A stretch of 64,000 nt of DNA from Longimicrobiales bacterium (GTDB lineage: Bacteria > Gemmatimonadota > Gemmatimonadetes > Longimicrobiales > Gaopeijiaceae). Shown in pieces: positions 54,457 through 64,000 of the stretch; within the stretch, counting starts at the first letter, position 1; each line of letters begins with the position of its first letter. The DNA is taken from NCBI GenBank assembly GCA_965248195.1, contig CBDFIQ010000002.1, positions 2,656,001 through 2,720,000 of the forward strand, given 5' to 3'. A model generated the notes under the pieces. That model had not been told where the DNA came from. It worked only from the letters and a program-made list of their open reading frames with translations, and made no database searches. The translations under genes were made by a program, and so were the position numbers.

Positions 54457-55832
54457 GGTAGTGTCCCTAGATTTGTGTAAAAGCGGATAAGCTGGACAGG
54501 AGGGAAAGAAAAACGGAAGCTCCTCTGTTGTTGTTCACTGTCACATGAACCCGGGAGTCCGGGTCTGCAGAGCAGGCTCGGAACCGGAGAGGAGCTTCCG
54601 ATGCAAGAGATTGTGGAGATCGGTCGGGCCACGCAAGACGAGCTACGCGATGATTTGCGCGAGCTGTTTCAAGGCGCGATCCGGCTGACGCTCGAGATGG
54701 TGCTGGAAGAGGAGCTGAAGGCCATGGTAGGTGCACGCCGCTTCGAGCGGGTGGGAAGCCGGAAGGACCATAGGAACGGCACATACCTGAGGCGGCTGCT
54801 GACGAGCCTGGGGCAGATCGAGGTCGCCATGCCCCGGAGCCGGGACAACGGTTCGCCGGCCGACGTGATCGGCCGCTACCAGCGCAGGAGCCCCGAGCTC
54901 GACGAGATGATGGTCGAGGCGTATGTGAGCGGCGTGTCACAGCGCAAGATGGGCGACGTCACCGAGGCGCTGATGGGCGAGCGTGTTGGGCGCTCGACGG
55001 TGAGTCGTGTGGCAAAACGGCTCGACGAGGCCGTGGAAGGGCTGCGCCGTGCGCCGATCGAGGGGCCTCACCCCTATCTGTACCTGGACGCCACGTTCTT
55101 GGACGCCCGCTGGGCCCGCAAAGTCGAGAACGTGAGTGCGCTCGTGGCGTATGCAGTGGGCCCTGAGGGTCACCGACGGCTCCTGGCCGTCACGCTGGGC
55201 GCTGAGGAGTCGCAGCAGAGCTGGTCGGAGCTCCTCGAGCAACTCCAGGACCGCGGCCTCGGCGGTGTCGAGCTCGTGATCGCCGATGAGCACGCAGGCC
55301 TGGCAGCTGCGGTCCGCCGCTTCCTGCCCGAGGCACGCCGTCAGAGGTGTACGGTCCATCTGCAGCGTAATGTGGGGGCGAGGGTCCCCCACCGCCTACG
55401 CAAGCGCGTGGCGCGTGAGGTCTCGGTGATCTTCCAGACATCCGGACTCGCCGAGGCGAAGAAGCTCCTGGGCGAGTTCGGCGCACGCTGGAAGAAGGAG
55501 CTGCCCGAGGCCGTGGAGGTCCTGGAGCGGGGCTTCGGGGCAGCGACGCAGTTCTACGCGTTCCCCGAGGCGCACTGGCCCCGGCTGCGTACCACCAACA
55601 GCCTCGAGCGGCTGCACGGCGAGATCAAACGCAGGATCAAGGCCGCCGGCGCCTTCCCGGACCGGGCCAGCGCCCTCAGGCTCATCACGGCCGTCGCACT
55701 CAGGACCACACACGTCTGGGGCGACCGGCGTTACCTCGACCTCTCACTCCTCCAGAAACAGGAGGTCGCCCAAGCAGCCTAGCCGAAGGCGAGGAGCTTC
55801 CTCCGCTTTTACACACAAATCGGGACTTGACC
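54457..55832 (+). mobile_element. IS256-family element, copy 1 (1376 bp)
   Basis: Imperfect TIRs; 8-bp TSD CAACGATA at 54449-54456 and 55833-55840. Confidence 0.95.
54601..55782 (+). CDS. IS256-family (Mutator-like) DDE transposase
   Basis: RNG, YLYLDAT, IADEHAGL, QRCTVH, RTTNSLERLHGEIKRR. Confidence 0.95.
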   Translation: MQEIVEIGRATQDELRDDLRELFQGAIRLTLEMVLEEELKAMVGARRFERVGSRKDHRNGTYLRRLLTSLGQIEVAMPRSRDNGSPADVIGRYQRRSPELDEMMVEAYVSGVSQRKMGDVTEALMGERVGRSTVSRVAKRLDEAVEGLRRAPIEGPHPYLYLDATFLDARWARKVENVSALVAYAVGPEGHRRLLAVTLGAEESQQSWSELLEQLQDRGLGGVELVIADEHAGLAAAVRRFLPEARRQRCTVHLQRNVGARVPHRLRKRVAREVSVIFQTSGLAEAKKLLGEFGARWKKELPEAVEVLERGFGAATQFYAFPEAHWPRLRTTNSLERLHGEIKRRIKAAGAFPDRASALRLITAVALRTTHVWGDRRYLDLSLLQKQEVAQAA

Positions 55833-56301
55833 CAACGATACCCCCTCTCGACGGCTTTACTGGCACGCCGGAGAAGGCGAAAGAGCGCGACGAACGTCTC
55901 CAGAACCAGACCCATGCCCACGCCGGTGGTGATGAGGATGATCCACCAGGCCCTGCCTAGCGGTCCCAGACTCCAGAAGTCTTGCCTCAATGAGATGGAG
56001 AGAAGAAGGGGAAAGACCAGGATCAACACGGCAAGCGTGCCGCTGCGGACTATGTTCCAGACGTCGCCCTGTAGTCGTTCCAGCCCCGGAGGAGGCCAGC
56101 GGAGGCTGGATCCCGTGGACGGTGCCTGCCCATCAACGTTGTCACCGGATTGATCCATGGCCTCTCTTTTTGCTAGGTGTGAGCCACCAGCAAATACCGT
56201 GTCAACGGCCATCGAAAGCTGCACAGGTCTTGGAGTGAACCCTACAAAGTGGACACAGAGGGGGCGATGGATTGACCTTCCGTAATCACTCGGGAGGTTC
56301 G

Positions 56302-56664
56302 ATGACGGTTCGACGACACACGAGGTACAGCACGGAGTTCAAGATCCAGCTGGTCCAGGCGTACTTGGATGGAGAAGGCAGTGCGAGGGCGATCGCTACT
56401 CGACACAGTGTACCTCACTCCCTACTCATGATCTGGGTCAAGAAGTACGGGGAAGGCGAACTTACGGAGGAGATCCACCTGCAGGAGCAAGTTGTCGAGG
56501 ACCAGGCCAAGATCGCGGCACTCGAGCGCAAGATTGGTCAGTTGACGATGGAACTCGACGCCATGAAAAAAAGGGCTCTGATACAGCCGTCACAGAAAAG
56601 CGCGCGGCCGTCGATCATCTCCGGGCCAGGGGTGTCCCTGTCCGACGGGGATGCAGCCTCATGA
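56302..56664 (+). CDS. IS3 OrfA (HTH)
   Basis: YSTEFKIQLV, LERKIGQLTME; GGAGG RBS; A7 run at 56566-56572. Confidence 0.9.
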   Translation: MTVRRHTRYSTEFKIQLVQAYLDGEGSARAIATRHSVPHSLLMIWVKKYGEGELTEEIHLQEQVVEDQAKIAALERKIGQLTMELDAMKKRALIQPSQKSARPSIISGPGVSLSDGDAAS

Positions 56665-57455
56665 ACATCCCGAGGAGTACCTTCTACAAGCGACCGGATG
56701 CGGCCTGCGAGACCGCTCGGGAGAGAGCGGACGGGGACCTGCGCGTGCGGATCGAAGACATTCTCGCCGAGTTCCCCGCCTACGGATATCGCCGGGTCAC
56801 GCACGAACTCGGGAGACGCGGCCTGGTGGTCAATCACAAGCGAGTCTCCAGGATTATGCGTGAACACGCGCTTACGCCCCACCGCGTACGCGCATGGCTT
56901 GCTACGACGAACAGCAATCACAAGCAGCGCATCTACCCGAACCTGAGGTCGTCGATCACGCCCGAGGGGCCTGACGAGCTCTGGGTGGCCGATCTGACGT
57001 ACATCCGGCTCACGACCGGCTTTGTTTTCCTAGCCGTCGTGCTCGACGTGTGGTCGCGGCGTGTCATTGGCTACGCCATCAGCCATCTCCTGGACGTGCG
57101 TCTTTGCCTGGCCGCACTCGATGCCGCACTCGAACTTCGGCAGCCGCGGTCTGGCCTCATCCACCACTCCGATCGCGGCGTCCAGTATGCATCCCAATTG
57201 TACCGTTCACGTCTCGCCGAACACGGTGTCCGAGGATCGATGTCCCGGCGGGGCAACCCGTACGACAACGCCCATGTTGAGAGCTTTTTCAAAACCCTGA
57301 AGCACGAGGAGATCTTGGCAAACGACTACAGCACAATTGATGACGTAGCCAACCGACTCCCCCACTTCCTTGAGGAGGTGTACAATCGAAGACGCTTGCA
57401 CTCCTCGCTCGGTTACATGCCACCTGAGGAATTCGAGAGCATTCATGCAGCTTGA
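56661..57455 (+). CDS. IS3 OrfB (rve integrase core), -1 frame relative to OrfA
   Basis: YGYRR, WVADLTY, HHSDRGVQY, DNAHVESFF, RLHSSLGY. Confidence 0.93.
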   Translation: MNIPRSTFYKRPDAACETARERADGDLRVRIEDILAEFPAYGYRRVTHELGRRGLVVNHKRVSRIMREHALTPHRVRAWLATTNSNHKQRIYPNLRSSITPEGPDELWVADLTYIRLTTGFVFLAVVLDVWSRRVIGYAISHLLDVRLCLAALDAALELRQPRSGLIHHSDRGVQYASQLYRSRLAEHGVRGSMSRRGNPYDNAHVESFFKTLKHEEILANDYSTIDDVANRLPHFLEEVYNRRRLHSSLGYMPPEEFESIHAA

Positions 57456-57513
57456 AGCCACTGACTGGTCAATCCAACCAACTCTCGTTGTCCACCCTCA
57501 GGGGTTCACTCCA

Positions 57514-58276
57514 CTCGACGAGGTCCTCACCGGCGTCGATGGCGGCGGCGTCACTGCCTCAGAGGCCATTGAACAGCTTCTGGGCGCCCAAATCATGCTC
57601 CGCAACAACCGACGACTTCAGGCCGCGATGCGCTCGTCCCGGTTGCCGACTATCAAGACGCTCGAAGACTTCGACTTCAGCTTCCAGCCCTCGATCCAGC
57701 GAGATCAGATCGACTCGCTCCACGAGCTCGGCTTCCTGGAGCGCAAGGAAAACGTGATCTTCCTCGGCCCACCGGGCGTCGGCAAGACACATCTCGCGAT
57801 CAGTCTCGCGATCGAGGCAGCCCAGAGCGGCCGTAGGGTCTACTACGGGACGCTCGCTGACCTCATCACTTCGCTCGAAGAAGCGAAGTCCGCTGGTAGG
57901 TTCGGCCACCGCCTCAAGACGCTGACCTATCCGTCTCTGCTCGTCGTCGACGACGATCGGTTATCTACCGGTCGGCCCGACCGGCGCCATGCTCTTCTTC
58001 CAGCTCATCAATCGACGCTACGAGCACGCCTCTACCGTGCTCACTTCCAACAAAGGGTTCGAGGAATGGGGCGAAATCCTGGGCGACGAAGTCATGGCCG
58101 CTGCACTCATCGACCGCCTCGTCCATCACTGCCACATCGTCAACATCCGAGGCAACAGCTTCCGGATGCGTCATCACACCGAACTCTCCAAAGCCCTCCA
58201 CTCGCCTCCTTCGGAGTCGAGCTCTTCACACCCACGGTCTAGGAGAAGAAAACAAAAGGAGAAAACGACGACTTAG
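57514..58276 (+). pseudogene. istB: IS21 helper ATPase IstB, 5'-truncated and frameshifted near 57955
   Basis: LEDFDFSFQP, GPPGVGKTHLA; Walker B VVDEIGYL disrupted by one extra base; TSNKGFEEWG, DRLVHH, GNSFR. Confidence 0.88.
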
Positions 58277-58630: not shown

Positions 58631-58819
58631 TCATCGGGTAGCTTGCGATACCTTCGCCTCCTCGAAATAGCGGACTGCGCTTTCGAACTTGTCGCGGCAA
58701 CCGGGATTGCAGAACCCGACGAGATGGCCGTCGTACTCGGTGAGCGAACCGGCCTGCACCGGCTTGCCGGACCAGGGGCAGGTTTGGTTGATGCAATCAG
58801 CAATGTCGAGCGCACGCAT
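58631..58819 (-). CDS. Small YHS/TRASH-domain metal-binding protein (62 aa)
   Basis: INQTCPWSGKPV..VGFCNPGCRDKF; GAAGG upstream. Confidence 0.8.
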   Translation of the reverse strand: MRALDIADCINQTCPWSGKPVQAGSLTEYDGHLVGFCNPGCRDKFESAVRYFEEAKVSQATR

Positions 58820-59224: not shown

Positions 59225-60600
59225 GGTCAAGTCCCGATTTGTGTGTAAAAGCGGAGGAAGCTCCTCGCCTTCGGCTAGGCTGCTTGGGCGACCTCCTGTT
59301 TCTGGAGGAGTGAGAGGTCGAGGTAACGCCGGTCGCCCCAGACGTGTGTGGTCCTGAGTGCGACGGCCGTGATGAGCCTGAGGGCGCTGGCCCGGTCCGG
59401 GAAGGCGCCGGCGGCCTTGATCCTGCGTTTGATCTCGCCGTGCAGCCGCTCGAGGCTGTTGGTGGTACGCAGCCGGGGCCAGTGCGCCTCGGGGAACGCG
59501 TAGAACTGCGTCGCTGCCCCGAAGCCCCGCTCCAGGACCTCCACGGCCTCGGGCAGCTCCTTCTTCCAGCGTGCGCCGAACTCGCCCAGGAGCTTCTTCG
59601 CCTCGGCGAGTCCGGATGTCTGGAAGATCACCGAGACCTCACGCGCCACGCGCTTGCGTAGGCGGTGGGGGACCCTCGCCCCCACATTACGCTGCAGATG
59701 GACCGTACACCTCTGACGGCGTGCCTCGGGCAGGAAGCGGCGGACCGCAGCTGCCAGGCCTGCGTGCTCATCGGCGATCACGAGCTCGACACCGCCGAGG
59801 CCGCGGTCCTGGAGTTGCTCGAGGAGCTCCGACCAGCTCTGCTGCGACTCCTCAGCGCCCAGCGTGACGGCCAGGAGCCGTCGGTGACCCTCAGGGCCCA
59901 CTGCATACGCCACGAGCGCACTCACGTTCTCGACTTTGCGGGCCCAGCGGGCGTCCAAGAACGTGGCGTCCAGGTACAGATAGGGGTGAGGCCCCTCGAT
60001 CGGCGCACGGCGCAGCCCTTCCACGGCCTCGTCGAGCCGTTTTGCCACACGACTCACCGTCGAGCGCCCAACACGCTCGCCCATCAGCGCCTCGGTGACG
60101 TCGCCCATCTTGCGCTGTGACACGCCGCTCACATACGCCTCGACCATCATCTCGTCGAGCTCGGGGCTCCTGCGCTGGTAGCGGCCGATCACGTCGGCCG
60201 GCGAACCGTTGTCCCGGCTCCGGGGCATGGCGACCTCGATCTGCCCCAGGCTCGTCAGCAGCCGCCTCAGGTATGTGCCGTTCCTATAGTCCTTCCGGCT
60301 TCCCACCCGCTCGAAGCGGCGTGCACCTACCATGGCCTTCAGCTCCTCTTCCAGCACCATCTCGAGCGTCAGCCGGATCGCGCCTTGAAACAGCTCGCGC
60401 AAATCATCGCGTAGCTCGTCTTGCGTGGCCCGACCGATCTCCACAATCTCTTGCATCGGAAGCTCCTCTCCGGTTCCGAGCCTGCTCTGCAGACCCGGAC
60501 TCCCGGGTTCATGTGACAGTGAACAACAACAGAGGAGCTTCCGTTTTTCTTTCCCTCCTGTCCAGCTTATCCGCTTTTACACAAATCTAGGGACACTACC
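59225..60600 (-). mobile_element. IS256-family element, copy 2 (1376 bp)
   Basis: Same ends as copy 1; 9-bp TSD GGTCCCGGT at 59216-59224 and 60601-60609. Confidence 0.95.
59275..60456 (-). CDS. IS256-family transposase
   Basis: Protein identical to copy 1 except KDYRNG vs KDHRNG. Confidence 0.95.
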   Translation of the reverse strand: MQEIVEIGRATQDELRDDLRELFQGAIRLTLEMVLEEELKAMVGARRFERVGSRKDYRNGTYLRRLLTSLGQIEVAMPRSRDNGSPADVIGRYQRRSPELDEMMVEAYVSGVSQRKMGDVTEALMGERVGRSTVSRVAKRLDEAVEGLRRAPIEGPHPYLYLDATFLDARWARKVENVSALVAYAVGPEGHRRLLAVTLGAEESQQSWSELLEQLQDRGLGGVELVIADEHAGLAAAVRRFLPEARRQRCTVHLQRNVGARVPHRLRKRVAREVSVIFQTSGLAEAKKLLGEFGARWKKELPEAVEVLERGFGAATQFYAFPEAHWPRLRTTNSLERLHGEIKRRIKAAGAFPDRASALRLITAVALRTTHVWGDRRYLDLSLLQKQEVAQAA

Positions 60601-60759: not shown

Positions 60760-60855
60760 TGAAGCGCAGCGTCGCGCTGAAGAAGCAGGCGCGCCAGCGG
60801 AGCGTATCATCGCCAAGCCGGAGCTTGGCGAGACGCGGGCGTAGCCGATCAGCAT
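60760..60855 (-). pseudogene. Serine resolvase N-terminal remnant
   Basis: MLIGYARVS followed out of frame by LQRDA. Confidence 0.6.
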
Positions 60856-61090
60856 GTGTTGTAAACGGTCGTTTGCGACACGCTGGCAATGGCGCCGTCC
60901 AGCGAGCGCCGCCGTGTGTCGTATCCCGTGTCTGATTCTATGTCATGCAGACGTCAAGCGCGTGTGACAGTGCCGTTCGCTTCTACGTCCGCCGCCGCAG
61001 ATCCTTACTGGGATAGTAACAGCCCCACAAAAACAGCACCAAAATCGGCCCACGGCGCACATTCGTTATGATTGCTGTACGTTGCGAAGA

Positions 61091-61545
61091 AAGGAATCCC
61101 CGATGAAGGAATCCCCGATGAAGGAATCCCCGATGAAGGAATCCCCGATGAAGGAATCCCCGATGAAGGAATCCCCGATGAAGGAATCCCCGATGAAGGA
61201 ATCCCCGATGAAGGAATCCCCGATGAAGGAATCCCCGATGAAGGAATCCCCGATGAAGGAATCCCCGATGAAGGAATCCCCGATGAAGGAATCCCCGATG
61301 AAGGAATCCCCGATGAAGGAATCCCCGATGAAGGAATCCCCGATGAAGGAATCCCCGATGAAGGAATCCCCGATGAAGGAATCCCCGATGAAGGAATCCC
61401 CGATGAAGGAATCCCCGATGAAGGAATCCCCGATGAAGGAATCCCCGATGAAGGAATCCCCGATGAAGGAATCCCCGATGAAGGAATCCCCGATGAAGGA
61501 ATCCCCGATGAAGGAATCCCCGATGAAGGAATCCCCGATGAAGGA
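61091..61545 (+). repeat. Perfect 15-bp tandem array, 30 copies + AAGGA
   Basis: AAGGAATCCCCGATG x30 (61091-61540); no spacers; no stop codon in any frame. Confidence 0.98.
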
Positions 61546-62305
61546 TATGCGTCGAGTCCACGCCGAACAACTGATGTCGTCGCTGGAGCTGTCACTGCCC
61601 CCGGTGGCCATCGCGTTCTGTGACGTCGTGCCGGACGACGTGCCGATGTTTGAGGGGGTGGTTCCCGCAGGATGCGCGTTCTGGCCGCAGGCCACGGCGC
61701 GCACCTTCGCGACAGCAGCCCGTGACCACGCCCTGTGCGCGATTGGCATCCACACGCACAATCTCTCGGGCGCGGCGGCCTCGCAGCCGGATGAGTTGCA
61801 AGCCTCCCTCAAGGCCATGATGGGACTCGATTACGTACGCGAGGAAGAAATCGCCGCCATTCCGGTCATGCAGGACAAGCTGGCCCATGCGCTCTACGGT
61901 CCGCTCGCGGACTTCCCGGTCCAGCCCGAGGTCGTCCTGGTGTTCGCCCACGCGCAACACGGGCTCATCCTGAGTGAGGCCGTCGCGCGCGTCGATGGCG
62001 GCACACCGCCGGCGATGGGGCGACCGGCGTGTGCCATCGTCCCTCACGTGCTCAATCAGCGGCGCGCGGCCATGAGCCTAGGGTGCTGCGGCGCGCGTGC
62101 CTACCTCGATGCGTTGACGGACGATGTAGCGCTATGGGCTCTGCCGGCACATTGCCTCGACCAGTACTGTGAGCAGATTGCCGCATTCGCTGATGCGAAC
62201 AGGACGCTCACGGCGTTTCATGAGCGTCGGCGGCAGGATGTCGAGTCTGGCCAGAGACCGACGGTCCAACAGTCGCTCGAGCGGCTGTCGGAGCCAGCGC
62301 CGTAA
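61538..62305 (+). CDS. DUF169-family Cys-rich protein (may be N-terminally extended by (MKESP)n)
   Basis: PPVAIAF, GCAFW, HALC, PLADFPVQPEVV, GRPAC, SLGCCGAR. Confidence 0.82.
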   Translation: MKDMRRVHAEQLMSSLELSLPPVAIAFCDVVPDDVPMFEGVVPAGCAFWPQATARTFATAARDHALCAIGIHTHNLSGAAASQPDELQASLKAMMGLDYVREEEIAAIPVMQDKLAHALYGPLADFPVQPEVVLVFAHAQHGLILSEAVARVDGGTPPAMGRPACAIVPHVLNQRRAAMSLGCCGARAYLDALTDDVALWALPAHCLDQYCEQIAAFADANRTLTAFHERRRQDVESGQRPTVQQSLERLSEPAP

Positions 62306-62594
62306 CTGCCGTCCGCTCACCAGGACACCGCCACGCTGGCCCCGATGCACGCCGAGCCCGCCGCAGTGTGCAAGACGACCTCCGCGCCGAGGGGGCGGTA
62401 CACGCCGAGCGTGTCGCCAGCAAACGACGACGAGACCGTGACCGCCGTGGTCAGCACGCTCCTGACCCTAGCTCTACTTCTTGATGTGGCCCGGCTTGCT
62501 GGGGGGCCGGGACGACTAGTGCGTTTTCACGGTGCTGTAGTGACTCGTAACCGCTATTGAAGCTCTGCACGTGAGCGTCTATGACCCCTCGACC

Positions 62595-62835
62595 GACGAT
62601 CACCAGCCAATCGAATAGGCGGCGGATGGCGGCCAGATGCTGCTTGATCGTGGGGGCACGATACCCGCCTTGCATTTCTTCGATGTAGGTGGCCACCGCG
62701 ACCGGCGAAATCTGTGCGAGCTCGAGCCCGCGCGCGTCGCACCAAGCGAAGAATCGCGTCACAGCCGCGCCGTACGCCGCGCGCGTATGCGGGTTGCGGA
62801 TCTGGGCCGTGAAAAACTCAACCGTCCGCTCCGCG
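62595..62835 (-). pseudogene. Tyrosine recombinase N-terminal (SAM-like) fragment
   Basis: EFFTAQIRNPHTRAAY..RFFAWC..PTIKQHLAAIRRLFDWLV; no catalytic domain. Confidence 0.8.
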
Positions 62836-62837
62836 GC

Positions 62838-62971
62838 TTACCGCTGTCGTTCCTTAAGGATCCGTTCCAGCGCTTCCACGCCGAGCGCCTGAAGACTGGT
62901 GTCCTCGTCGAGGGAGAGCTGTCGCAGTTGCCGGTGTAGTTTTGGCTGGAGTCGGAGCAACACTCCTTTCA
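62838..62971 (-). pseudogene. Ribbon-helix-helix protein cut at its 5' end by IS256 copy 3
   Basis: KGVLLRLQPKLHRQLRQLSLDEDTSLQALGVEALERILKERQR*; not in the ORF track. Confidence 0.65.
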
Positions 62972-64000
62972 GGTAGTGTCCCTAGATTTGTGTAAAAGCG
63001 GATAAGCTGGACAGGAGGGAAAGAAAAACGGAAGCTCCTCTGTTGTTGTTCACTGTCACATGAACCCGGGAGTCCGGGTCTGCAGAGCAGGCTCGGAACC
63101 GGAGAGGAGCTTCCGATGCAAGAGATTGTGGAGATCGGTCGGGCCACGCAAGACGAGCTACGCGATGATTTGCGCGAGCTGTTTCAAGGCGCGATCCGGC
63201 TGACGCTCGAGATGGTGCTGGAAGAGGAGCTGAAGGCCATGGTAGGTGCACGCCGCTTCGAGCGGGTGGGAAGCCGGAAGGACCATAGGAACGGCACATA
63301 CCTGAGGCGGCTGCTGACGAGCCTGGGGCAGATCGAGGTCGCCATGCCCCGGAGCCGGGACAACGGTTCGCCGGCCGACGTGATCGGCCGCTACCAGCGC
63401 AGGAGCCCCGAGCTCGACGAGATGATGGTCGAGGCGTATGTGAGCGGCGTGTCACAGCGCAAGATGGGCGACGTCACCGAGGCGCTGATGGGCGAGCGTG
63501 TTGGGCGCTCGACGGTGAGTCGTGTGGCAAAACGGCTCGACGAGGCCGTGGAAGGGCTGCGCCGTGCGCCGATCGAGGGGCCTCACCCCTATCTGTACCT
63601 GGACGCCACGTTCTTGGACGCCCGCTGGGCCCGCAAAGTCGAGAACGTGAGTGCGCTCGTGGCGTATGCAGTGGGCCCTGAGGGTCACCGACGGCTCCTG
63701 GCCGTCACGCTGGGCGCTGAGGAGTCGCAGCAGAGCTGGTCGGAGCTCCTCGAGCAACTCCAGGACCGCGGCCTCGGCGGTGTCGAGCTCGTGATCGCCG
63801 ATGAGCACGCAGGCCTGGCAGCTGCGGTCCGCCGCTTCCTGCCCGAGGCACGCCGTCAGAGGTGTACGGTCCATCTGCAGCGTAATGTGGGGGCGAGGGT
63901 CCCCCACCGCCTACGCAAGCGCGTGGCGCGTGAGGTCTCGGTGATCTTCCAGACATCCGGACTCGCCGAGGCGAAGAAGCTCCTGGGCGAGTTCGGCGCA
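62972..64000 (+). mobile_element. IS256-family element, copy 3 (runs off the window)
   Basis: Left end and leader match copy 1. Confidence 0.95.
63116..64000 (+). CDS. IS256-family transposase (partial)
   Basis: ATGCAAGAGATT start; matches copy 1 including KDHRNG. Confidence 0.93.
   Translation, partial: MQEIVEIGRATQDELRDDLRELFQGAIRLTLEMVLEEELKAMVGARRFERVGSRKDHRNGTYLRRLLTSLGQIEVAMPRSRDNGSPADVIGRYQRRSPELDEMMVEAYVSGVSQRKMGDVTEALMGERVGRSTVSRVAKRLDEAVEGLRRAPIEGPHPYLYLDATFLDARWARKVENVSALVAYAVGPEGHRRLLAVTLGAEESQQSWSELLEQLQDRGLGGVELVIADEHAGLAAAVRRFLPEARRQRCTVHLQRNVGARVPHRLRKRVAREVSVIFQTSGLAEAKKLLGEFGA

Follow-up and report, generated by a model that had tools for sequence, protein, structure and literature searches.

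A variable tandem repeat of a gene's own ribosome-binding site and start codon, in one to thirty units, ahead of a mobile DUF169 gene in Longimicrobiales

Minisatellites with a variable number of tandem repeats (VNTRs) can reach into the start of a gene. In Yersinia pestis, 6 of 88 such loci overlap gene start codons; the accessible part of that report gives these loci few alleles and diversities of 0.12-0.26, and makes no mention of ribosome-binding sites (PMC3689786). Leaders with several ribosome-binding sites (RBSs) have also been engineered, with the Shine-Dalgarno (SD) sequences set in the loops of synthetic hairpins, and as far as the accessible text goes they were tested to little over six sites in four species, with a gain in Gram-positive hosts and a loss in E. 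coli (Zhang et al. 2022, PMC9723656). According to the same portion of that paper, only an SD spacing of 15-21 nt boosted output in Bacillus licheniformis, where six sites yielded 5-fold more GFP and one band per site, with no gain beyond six (PMC9723656). Mycobacterial interspersed repetitive units (MIRU) are also found at start codons; they contain signals for translation and seem to affect the gene little, and the sections available describe them as dispersed and apparently mobile, with a small ORF whose coupling to the gene is at -4 nt (PMC12548453). For a natural in-frame array of SD plus start codon no paper was found in a search made largely without subscription papers. The locus analysed here lies near the end of the window, by which we mean the whole 64,000-nt stretch of DNA that was analysed, in the genome assembly studied here (G000; 4.86 Mb, two contigs). 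Its features are as follows.

59275..60456, minus strand: IS256-family transposase upstream of the module (PF00872, E 4.4e-100).
60774..62971, no strand assigned: mobile module with the DUF169 gene, common to other genomes; it continues past the IS256 copy and the window end.
61067..61072, plus strand: likely -10 box, TATGAT, 30 nt before the first ATG.
61088..61095, plus strand: original extended Shine-Dalgarno of the first site, AGAAAGGA; the one-unit allele has the same letters.
61091..61545, plus strand: perfect tandem array of a 15-bp unit, 30.3 copies; each unit holds the SD core AAGGA, a 7-nt spacer and ATG.
61103..61537, plus strand: in-frame coding extension, (MKESP)x29, 145 aa, predicted to be disordered (ORF translation, AlphaFold2).
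61538..62305, plus strand: DUF169 (COG2043) coding region, 255 aa from the last ATG (Pfam PF02596, E 1.9e-15).
61541..61543, plus strand: codon 2 after the last ATG, AAG here and AAT in most alleles (allele comparison).
62451..62762, minus strand: tyrosine-recombinase N-terminal remnant, part of the module (PF02899, E 8.8e-07); also in L002.
62972..64000, plus strand: IS256-family element inside the module's ribbon-helix-helix gene, truncated where the window ends; L002/L009 and L024 lack it.

The first-pass annotation of this DNA had described 30 tandem initiation units, all with their ATG in frame with a DUF169 gene and ending in ATG AAG GAT, and the sequence agrees on each of these points. 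In the assembly, the 15-bp unit at 61091-61545 is repeated 30.3 times with 100% matches and zero indels, the 30 ATGs (61103, 61118 ... 61538) share the frame of the ORF that ends at 62305, and the letters at the array's end are read as claimed. All 30 occurrences of the exact unit in G000 lie inside the array, with none elsewhere in the genome. The array is the longest among the 41 perfect arrays of at least 30 bp in G000, and among 278 perfect arrays (at least two copies, period 9-40) it is the sole one whose unit contains an SD core and a start codon and which leads into an ORF of at least 100 aa. The array had also been called stop-free in all six frames, and this was wrong: the frame from 61092 reads RNPR-stop in every unit, so that five of the six frames are open and TGA occurs once per unit in the remaining one. 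Openness of the six frames was accordingly given up as evidence of design: five open frames were the commonest outcome among 20,000 shuffled units (9,349), and six occurred in 4,656.

The start site of this gene is a natural variable tandem repeat. A comparison of orthologue leaders, which had been proposed as a check, gave one or two units in DNA and 1, 2, 3, 4 or 15 in proteins. At the DNA level L002/L009 have a single unit. There are two units in L024, L025 and L010; the junction precedes the single mismatch between the SD core and the letters 15 nt downstream in L024 and L025, and follows it in L010. When the one-unit allele was compared with contigs of four runs from four studies, X1, X2 and X3 had no insertion (depths 261, 100 and 69.5), and the fourth run, X4, had a contig with a 15-letter insertion of the unit at a depth of 153. 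Each run's crossing contig also had three other letters that differ from the one-unit allele; among the differences listed, places 1454, 1463 and 1548 differ in all contigs, G000 also differs from L002 there, and X4 may not be independent of L024/L025. A two-unit contig could also be a longer array in collapsed form, as short-word graphs can produce.

Units were counted in 27 predicted proteins of the near-identical form: one-unit and two-unit proteins number 11 each, four units occur in 2 proteins, and three, fifteen (P0131) and thirty units (G000's own) in a single protein each. Multi-unit alleles thus make up 16 of the 27, a share biased towards such alleles in that three proteins were picked by name and cluster 1 was built round a multi-unit representative; the set took all 12 members of one cluster and 15 of the 110 of cluster 2. 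Gene callers can conceal upstream units, and out-of-frame duplications are invisible in proteins. Thirty units stand on a body common to 1-, 2- and 3-unit alleles, fifteen on E229Q and four on D113H/A226V/E229Q. The two-unit proteins (n=11) comprise eight MKESP-MN and one each of MNESP-MN, MNESP-MK and MKESP-MK. The sister form of the gene had no duplication in 44 proteins or 9 DNA loci, and neither had the more distant relatives screened. Longer alleles did not appear as separate clusters in the best 120 of 410 matches of 178-569 aa, and none of the six forms sought with G000's exact body and Lys end (2, 4, 5, 6, 7 and 8 units) was present in the collection.

These observations bear on the earlier caution that the array might be an assembly or read artefact. 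Pure artefact is unlikely as the source of the duplication itself. What remains of that caution is a narrower alternative, which we also hold to be improbable, namely that the alleles of 2-4 units are real and those of 15 and 30 units were inflated by long-read assembly or polishing. The two long alleles do rest on one contig each, the array is perfect throughout and the proteins searched include none with 5-14 or 16-29 units; however, they lie on different contigs and different protein backgrounds, and intermediate alleles of three and four units exist. A Lys end is also present in one- and two-unit alleles, including MNESP-MK, which polishing to the majority unit cannot make. None of the four runs showed at least three units, though their contigs could not span such arrays. 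False duplications and excessive repeats have been reported for long-read metagenome assemblers (10.1101/2025.04.22.649783), but the errors described in the accessible part of that source are long duplications and repeat-filled short contigs, whereas here a short unit is placed inside a 3.4-Mb contig.

The other perfect arrays of G000, which are much longer than those of its congeners, could be taken in favour of such inflation, as two more in-frame arrays of this genome are far longer than in all three congeners compared. A perfect 6-bp array of 26 copies at G000:C2:2787894-2788051 (L052) encodes a (KE)26 run in the FdhE gene, 45-54 residues longer than in G005, G006 and G011, with an SD-like purine run as its unit. 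At G000:C2:1193987-1194125 (L053) a radical-SAM gene encodes a Val-Asp run, about 54 residues long, which has grown from a two-copy seed that is present in congeners and consists of a perfect block followed by degenerate blocks. The blockwise degeneracy of this second array speaks against inflation and points to a genuine slippage history, and the G000 lineage seems to retain such array expansions. The frame bias of the arrays argues in the same direction: among the 22 perfect arrays of at least three copies in G000, 13 of 15 with a triplet period lie inside open frames, compared with 2 of 7 others, in what is a crude test.

Slipped-strand amplification had been suggested as the origin of the array, seeded by a perfect AAGGA shared by the RBS and codons 2-3. 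The series of 1, 2, 3, 4, 15 and 30 units and the four combinations of junction and end favour amplification of this kind, and these combinations would be the expected trace of slips or unequal exchanges flanking the mismatch. The seeding part of the suggestion has mostly to be reversed. Asn, with AAT as codon 2, is the second residue of 10 of the 11 one-unit proteins and of 9 of the 11 with two units, so that perfect 5-nt microhomology is unnecessary for seeding the duplication; the one-unit allele carries AAGGA in its SD and AATGA 15 nt later, an imperfect ancestral match of 4/5. A one-unit allele with Lys does exist, however (P0127). L011 has the 4/5 match in the 15-nt register without duplication, which indicates that microhomology is also insufficient, and the sister-form loci L013 and L014 match at 3/5 in that register. 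The one-unit allele matches itself better in a 16-nt than in a 15-nt register; all five duplicated DNA alleles (G000, L010, L024, L025 and X4) are 15-nt, and they may descend from one event.

The Lys end is found in 1 of 11 one-unit alleles, 2 of 11 two-unit alleles and 4 of 5 alleles of at least three units (longer versus two-unit alleles, Fisher p 0.036, the kin being non-independent). It looks like a slippage product that then favoured or accompanied long arrays. The AAG at 61541..61543, which lengthens the perfect repeat by 3 nt, is likely derived, and a point mutation to G may have come first in the lineage of G000. A contingency (phase-variable) locus would show frequent, reversible length change that switches or tunes a selected phenotype; what is seen here is variation in length, with a one-unit Lys allele that would be consistent with contraction. 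A search for some special source of instability found none: neither as DNA nor as RNA does the array fold better than its shuffles (z +0.45, +1.11, +0.63), which speaks against hairpin-driven expansion, and loss of mismatch repair was rejected on the presence of MutS and MutL domains in open frames.

The array is carried by a module that is 97-99.5% identical to L002/L009, L010, L024 and L025 on both flanks of the repeat. The module occurs in 4 of 314 genomes of the family, in three genera, and its 98-99% DNA identity across these genera points to recent horizontal spread. The DUF169 gene, present in 2 of the 12 genomes of the genus, is accessory cargo. Matching named records of the module are titled Longimicrobiales (Gemmatimonadota); at nine more loci, in records with Vicinamibacterales titles, the gene is 92.5-94.4% identical and represents the sister form. 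A 401-genome sample of the phylum yielded no additional copy of the gene and short chance matches only, and the two-unit pattern was found in 3 of 401 genomes of the order, none of them beyond the alleles already counted. The viral contigs searched contained no relative, leaving carriage by phage unsupported. A conserved partner gene sought around 18 loci (87 of 132 ORFs scanned) was not found, the neighbours being mostly transposases and integrases.

The surroundings are rich in insertions. G000 has 104 near-full-length copies (at least 97%) of one IS256-family element, and three IS256 copies lie within the window's last 10 kb (54601-55782, 59275-60456 and 63116-64000); a short direct repeat flanks the copy at 62972 on both sides. 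An IS3-type element and a frameshifted IstB occupy 56272-58276, an insertion-rich stretch, and 58631-58813 on the minus strand encodes a small YHS-like protein with a weak Pfam match below the cut-off. A minus-strand ORF starting at 60855 (window 60824-60960) begins MLIGYARVS, which we take to resemble a serine-resolvase N-terminus, and then breaks off; it has no Pfam match. The stretch 60824-60960 is single copy in G000 and reached depths of 7,500-90,000 in all four runs compared, which suggests plentiful look-alikes in those communities. Towards the module's left end, L010 and L024 (at about 2670-2690) have a further 5-bp micro-duplication relative to L009, and the same micro-duplication appears as an insertion in runs X1 and X3.

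The cargo protein is a clear member of DUF169, with 57.7 bits for PF02596 against a curated cut-off of 27. C46 and C183 are invariant and H64, C67 and C165 are conserved at 90% or more in 64 sequences, which suggests a putative metal site formed by these five residues. A dN/dS of 0.17-0.19 against eight sister loci indicates purifying selection, and hence that the protein matters somewhere. The coding region of G000 is intact and is the same as in one-unit alleles except for residue 2. Second DUF169 copies at L025:3001-3769 and L023:3001-3764 are frameshifted, decay and sequence error both being possible; P0003 has an internal duplication and P0009 an internal deletion. AlphaFold2 models the 255-aa protein at a pLDDT of 96.4. 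In the 400-aa form, residues 1-130 have a pLDDT of about 50 and no secondary structure, and the domain is unchanged; the tail is made of 29 each of M, K, E, S and P and has no net charge. A PDB sequence search with the protein gave no match, as did a Foldseek search of the model at E 0.001. The best VIA structural match (Z 5.9, rmsd 7.1 over 105 residues) shows neither a new nor a known fold, and a weak lead from the Atlas comparison is to GGGtGRT proteins (0.91, low recognition). The literature that names the family gives no function in its accessible parts. With a confident model, no clear solved-fold match and a set of Cys and His residues, the domain at 61538-62305 is a candidate for structural and metal-binding work.

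TATAAT or TATGAT stands at an equal distance from the start site in all seven alleles compared (G000, L009, L010, L024, L025, L013 and L014); a sigma-70 consensus scan at the locus gave no full promoter, and a terminator scan there gave no hit. With the -10-like box at a constant 30 nt upstream of the first ATG, a change in copy number leaves the first site where it is. The duplex of the first SD with the 16S tail of G000 is -4.9 kcal/mol for an 11-nt tail or -10.3 kcal/mol for a 14-nt tail, and that of the inner SDs is -5.0 or -6.4 kcal/mol, varying with the assumed mature rRNA end; the value of -5.0 kcal/mol is near a crude genome median of -4.8 (2,390 long ORFs). Opening costs 8.7-10.4 kcal/mol at inner sites and 8.3 at the first (7 of the 30 sites), and 7.7 in the one-unit allele. 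Since the first site is stronger and more open, the main product is predicted to start there and to carry the tail, and inner starts with a small ladder of isoforms are plausible. In RNA runs, some of which are labelled sponge metagenome, a fraction of 0.07-0.30 of words was matched, by word matching only.

Could the array be a selected translational rheostat, in which each unit is an extra initiation site and copy number would set the amount of DUF169 together with the ladder of isoforms? We think this unlikely. The first-pass annotation had raised tuned expression, such a ladder and slowed ribosomes as possibilities; the engineered leaders make the first two plausible, although their effect had the opposite sign in E. 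coli. The unit has the form of working engineered leaders (SD, 7-nt spacer, in-frame ATG and 15 nt between SDs), but in the part of the study available the leaders reduced output in E. coli and more than six sites gave no additional benefit (PMC9723656), which puts 30 units far past the useful range. At least three protein backgrounds and three genera do have multi-unit alleles, yet none of the 44 sister-form proteins and no screened distant relative is duplicated. All five duplicated DNA alleles stay in frame despite the better match in the 16-nt register; L010, however, copies the ATG while destroying the second SD (-1.1 kcal/mol), as would be expected of an accident. Two units also make a weak hairpin over the SD, where the one-unit start is unusually open (z +2.6). 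The purifying selection on the protein counts in favour of a rheostat, the frameshifted copies of L023 and L025 against it.

The opposite effect can also be envisaged, with a reversible expansion that lowers the expression of a costly cargo because SD-ATG sites jam ribosomes or because the tail destabilises the protein. In the accessible part of the engineering study, multiple sites reduced output in E. coli, and collisions between ribosomes were put forward for leaders of more than six sites (PMC9723656); the inner sites here are harder to open, and damaged copies of the gene occur. Nevertheless, the coding region in G000 has stayed intact and equal to one-unit alleles apart from residue 2, and with 104 IS256 copies in the genome plain inactivation would come more easily, so we consider such a turn-down device very improbable.

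We therefore favour, with moderate confidence, a simpler reading: the array is a VNTR of DUF169's own RBS and start site, in 1-30 units across records, a likely product of replication slippage that is probably tolerated rather than selected. We propose the following series of steps. The near-match between SD and codons 2-3 in the one-unit allele is where a first slip would occur, and would give two units; a junction before or after the mismatch would produce the MKESP or MNESP forms. More slips or unequal exchanges would then lengthen and shorten the array, and the G can move into codon 2, giving the purer tract that goes with long alleles. A unit of 15 nt preserves the frame, and the distance from the likely promoter to the first SD-ATG does not change. 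Most ribosomes are predicted to start at this first site and to read through, giving DUF169 with a disordered (MKESP)n tail, and some shorter forms would come from inner sites. Tolerance of the array would follow from the unchanged position of the first site and the predicted disorder of the tail; a small cost, the accessory nature of the cargo and weak purging of repeats and insertion sequences would allow long alleles to persist. Neutrality of the array is what we infer from this. Counted against tolerance is that multi-unit alleles are common, which selection could also give, although the proteins listed are a biased sample.

As a tolerated repeat, the locus would be an extreme but ordinary VNTR, and a clean record of how a 4/5 microhomology between an SD and codons 2-3 can seed a duplication that recombines at both junctions and reaches 30 copies. 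It is doubtful that the array is a horizontally spreading natural volume knob, seeded by slippage, whose 1-30 units would set output and isoforms with promoter and enzyme untouched; if it were, it would be nature's own multi-RBS leader with a ready-made allelic series. The series of 1, 2 (four forms), 3, 4, 15 and 30 units before the same protein would permit a direct natural test of whether tandem initiation sites, known until now as an engineered part, have an effect on output, and of its direction in a diderm host. For annotators, the locus is a warning that repeated N-terminal pentapeptides can be copied start sites.

Among the systems described, the start-codon VNTRs of Y. pestis share with the array head-to-tail units (8-60 bp there), a start codon inside the unit and a strain-variable copy number that alters ORF length, as far as the available description goes (PMC3689786). 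The array has the features of this class, i.e. head-to-tail units in the range of about 7-100 bp, a copy number that varies among near-identical alleles and an internal start codon. It differs from those loci, on the same partial description, in that the whole SD-spacer-ATG is repeated in frame, in 1-30 units, on a mobile module that is found across genera. MIRU, as described in the accessible sections of PMC12548453, are more distant: the unit here duplicates the gene's own start locally, is present at a single locus in G000 and is fused in frame without a stop, and there is no small ORF with -4 nt coupling, as the ATG frame of the unit has no stop and the TGA that overlaps each ATG belongs to a frame that lacks a start codon within the unit. 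Within DUF169, to which the cargo protein belongs, only one near-identical lineage of the relatives compared has the N-terminal repeat. With the engineered leaders the array shares tandem in-frame units of SD and start codon, and its geometry, with a 7-nt spacer and 15 nt between units, lies within theirs (SD, a spacer of 7-9 nt, an in-frame start, 15-21 nt apart); the ladder of N-terminally extended isoforms is theirs. Compared with what the available text tells of those leaders (PMC9723656), the array is natural, has an SD of medium strength, reaches 30 units and is known here from sequence alone. The array is a real start-site VNTR, unusual for its length and its complete allelic series.
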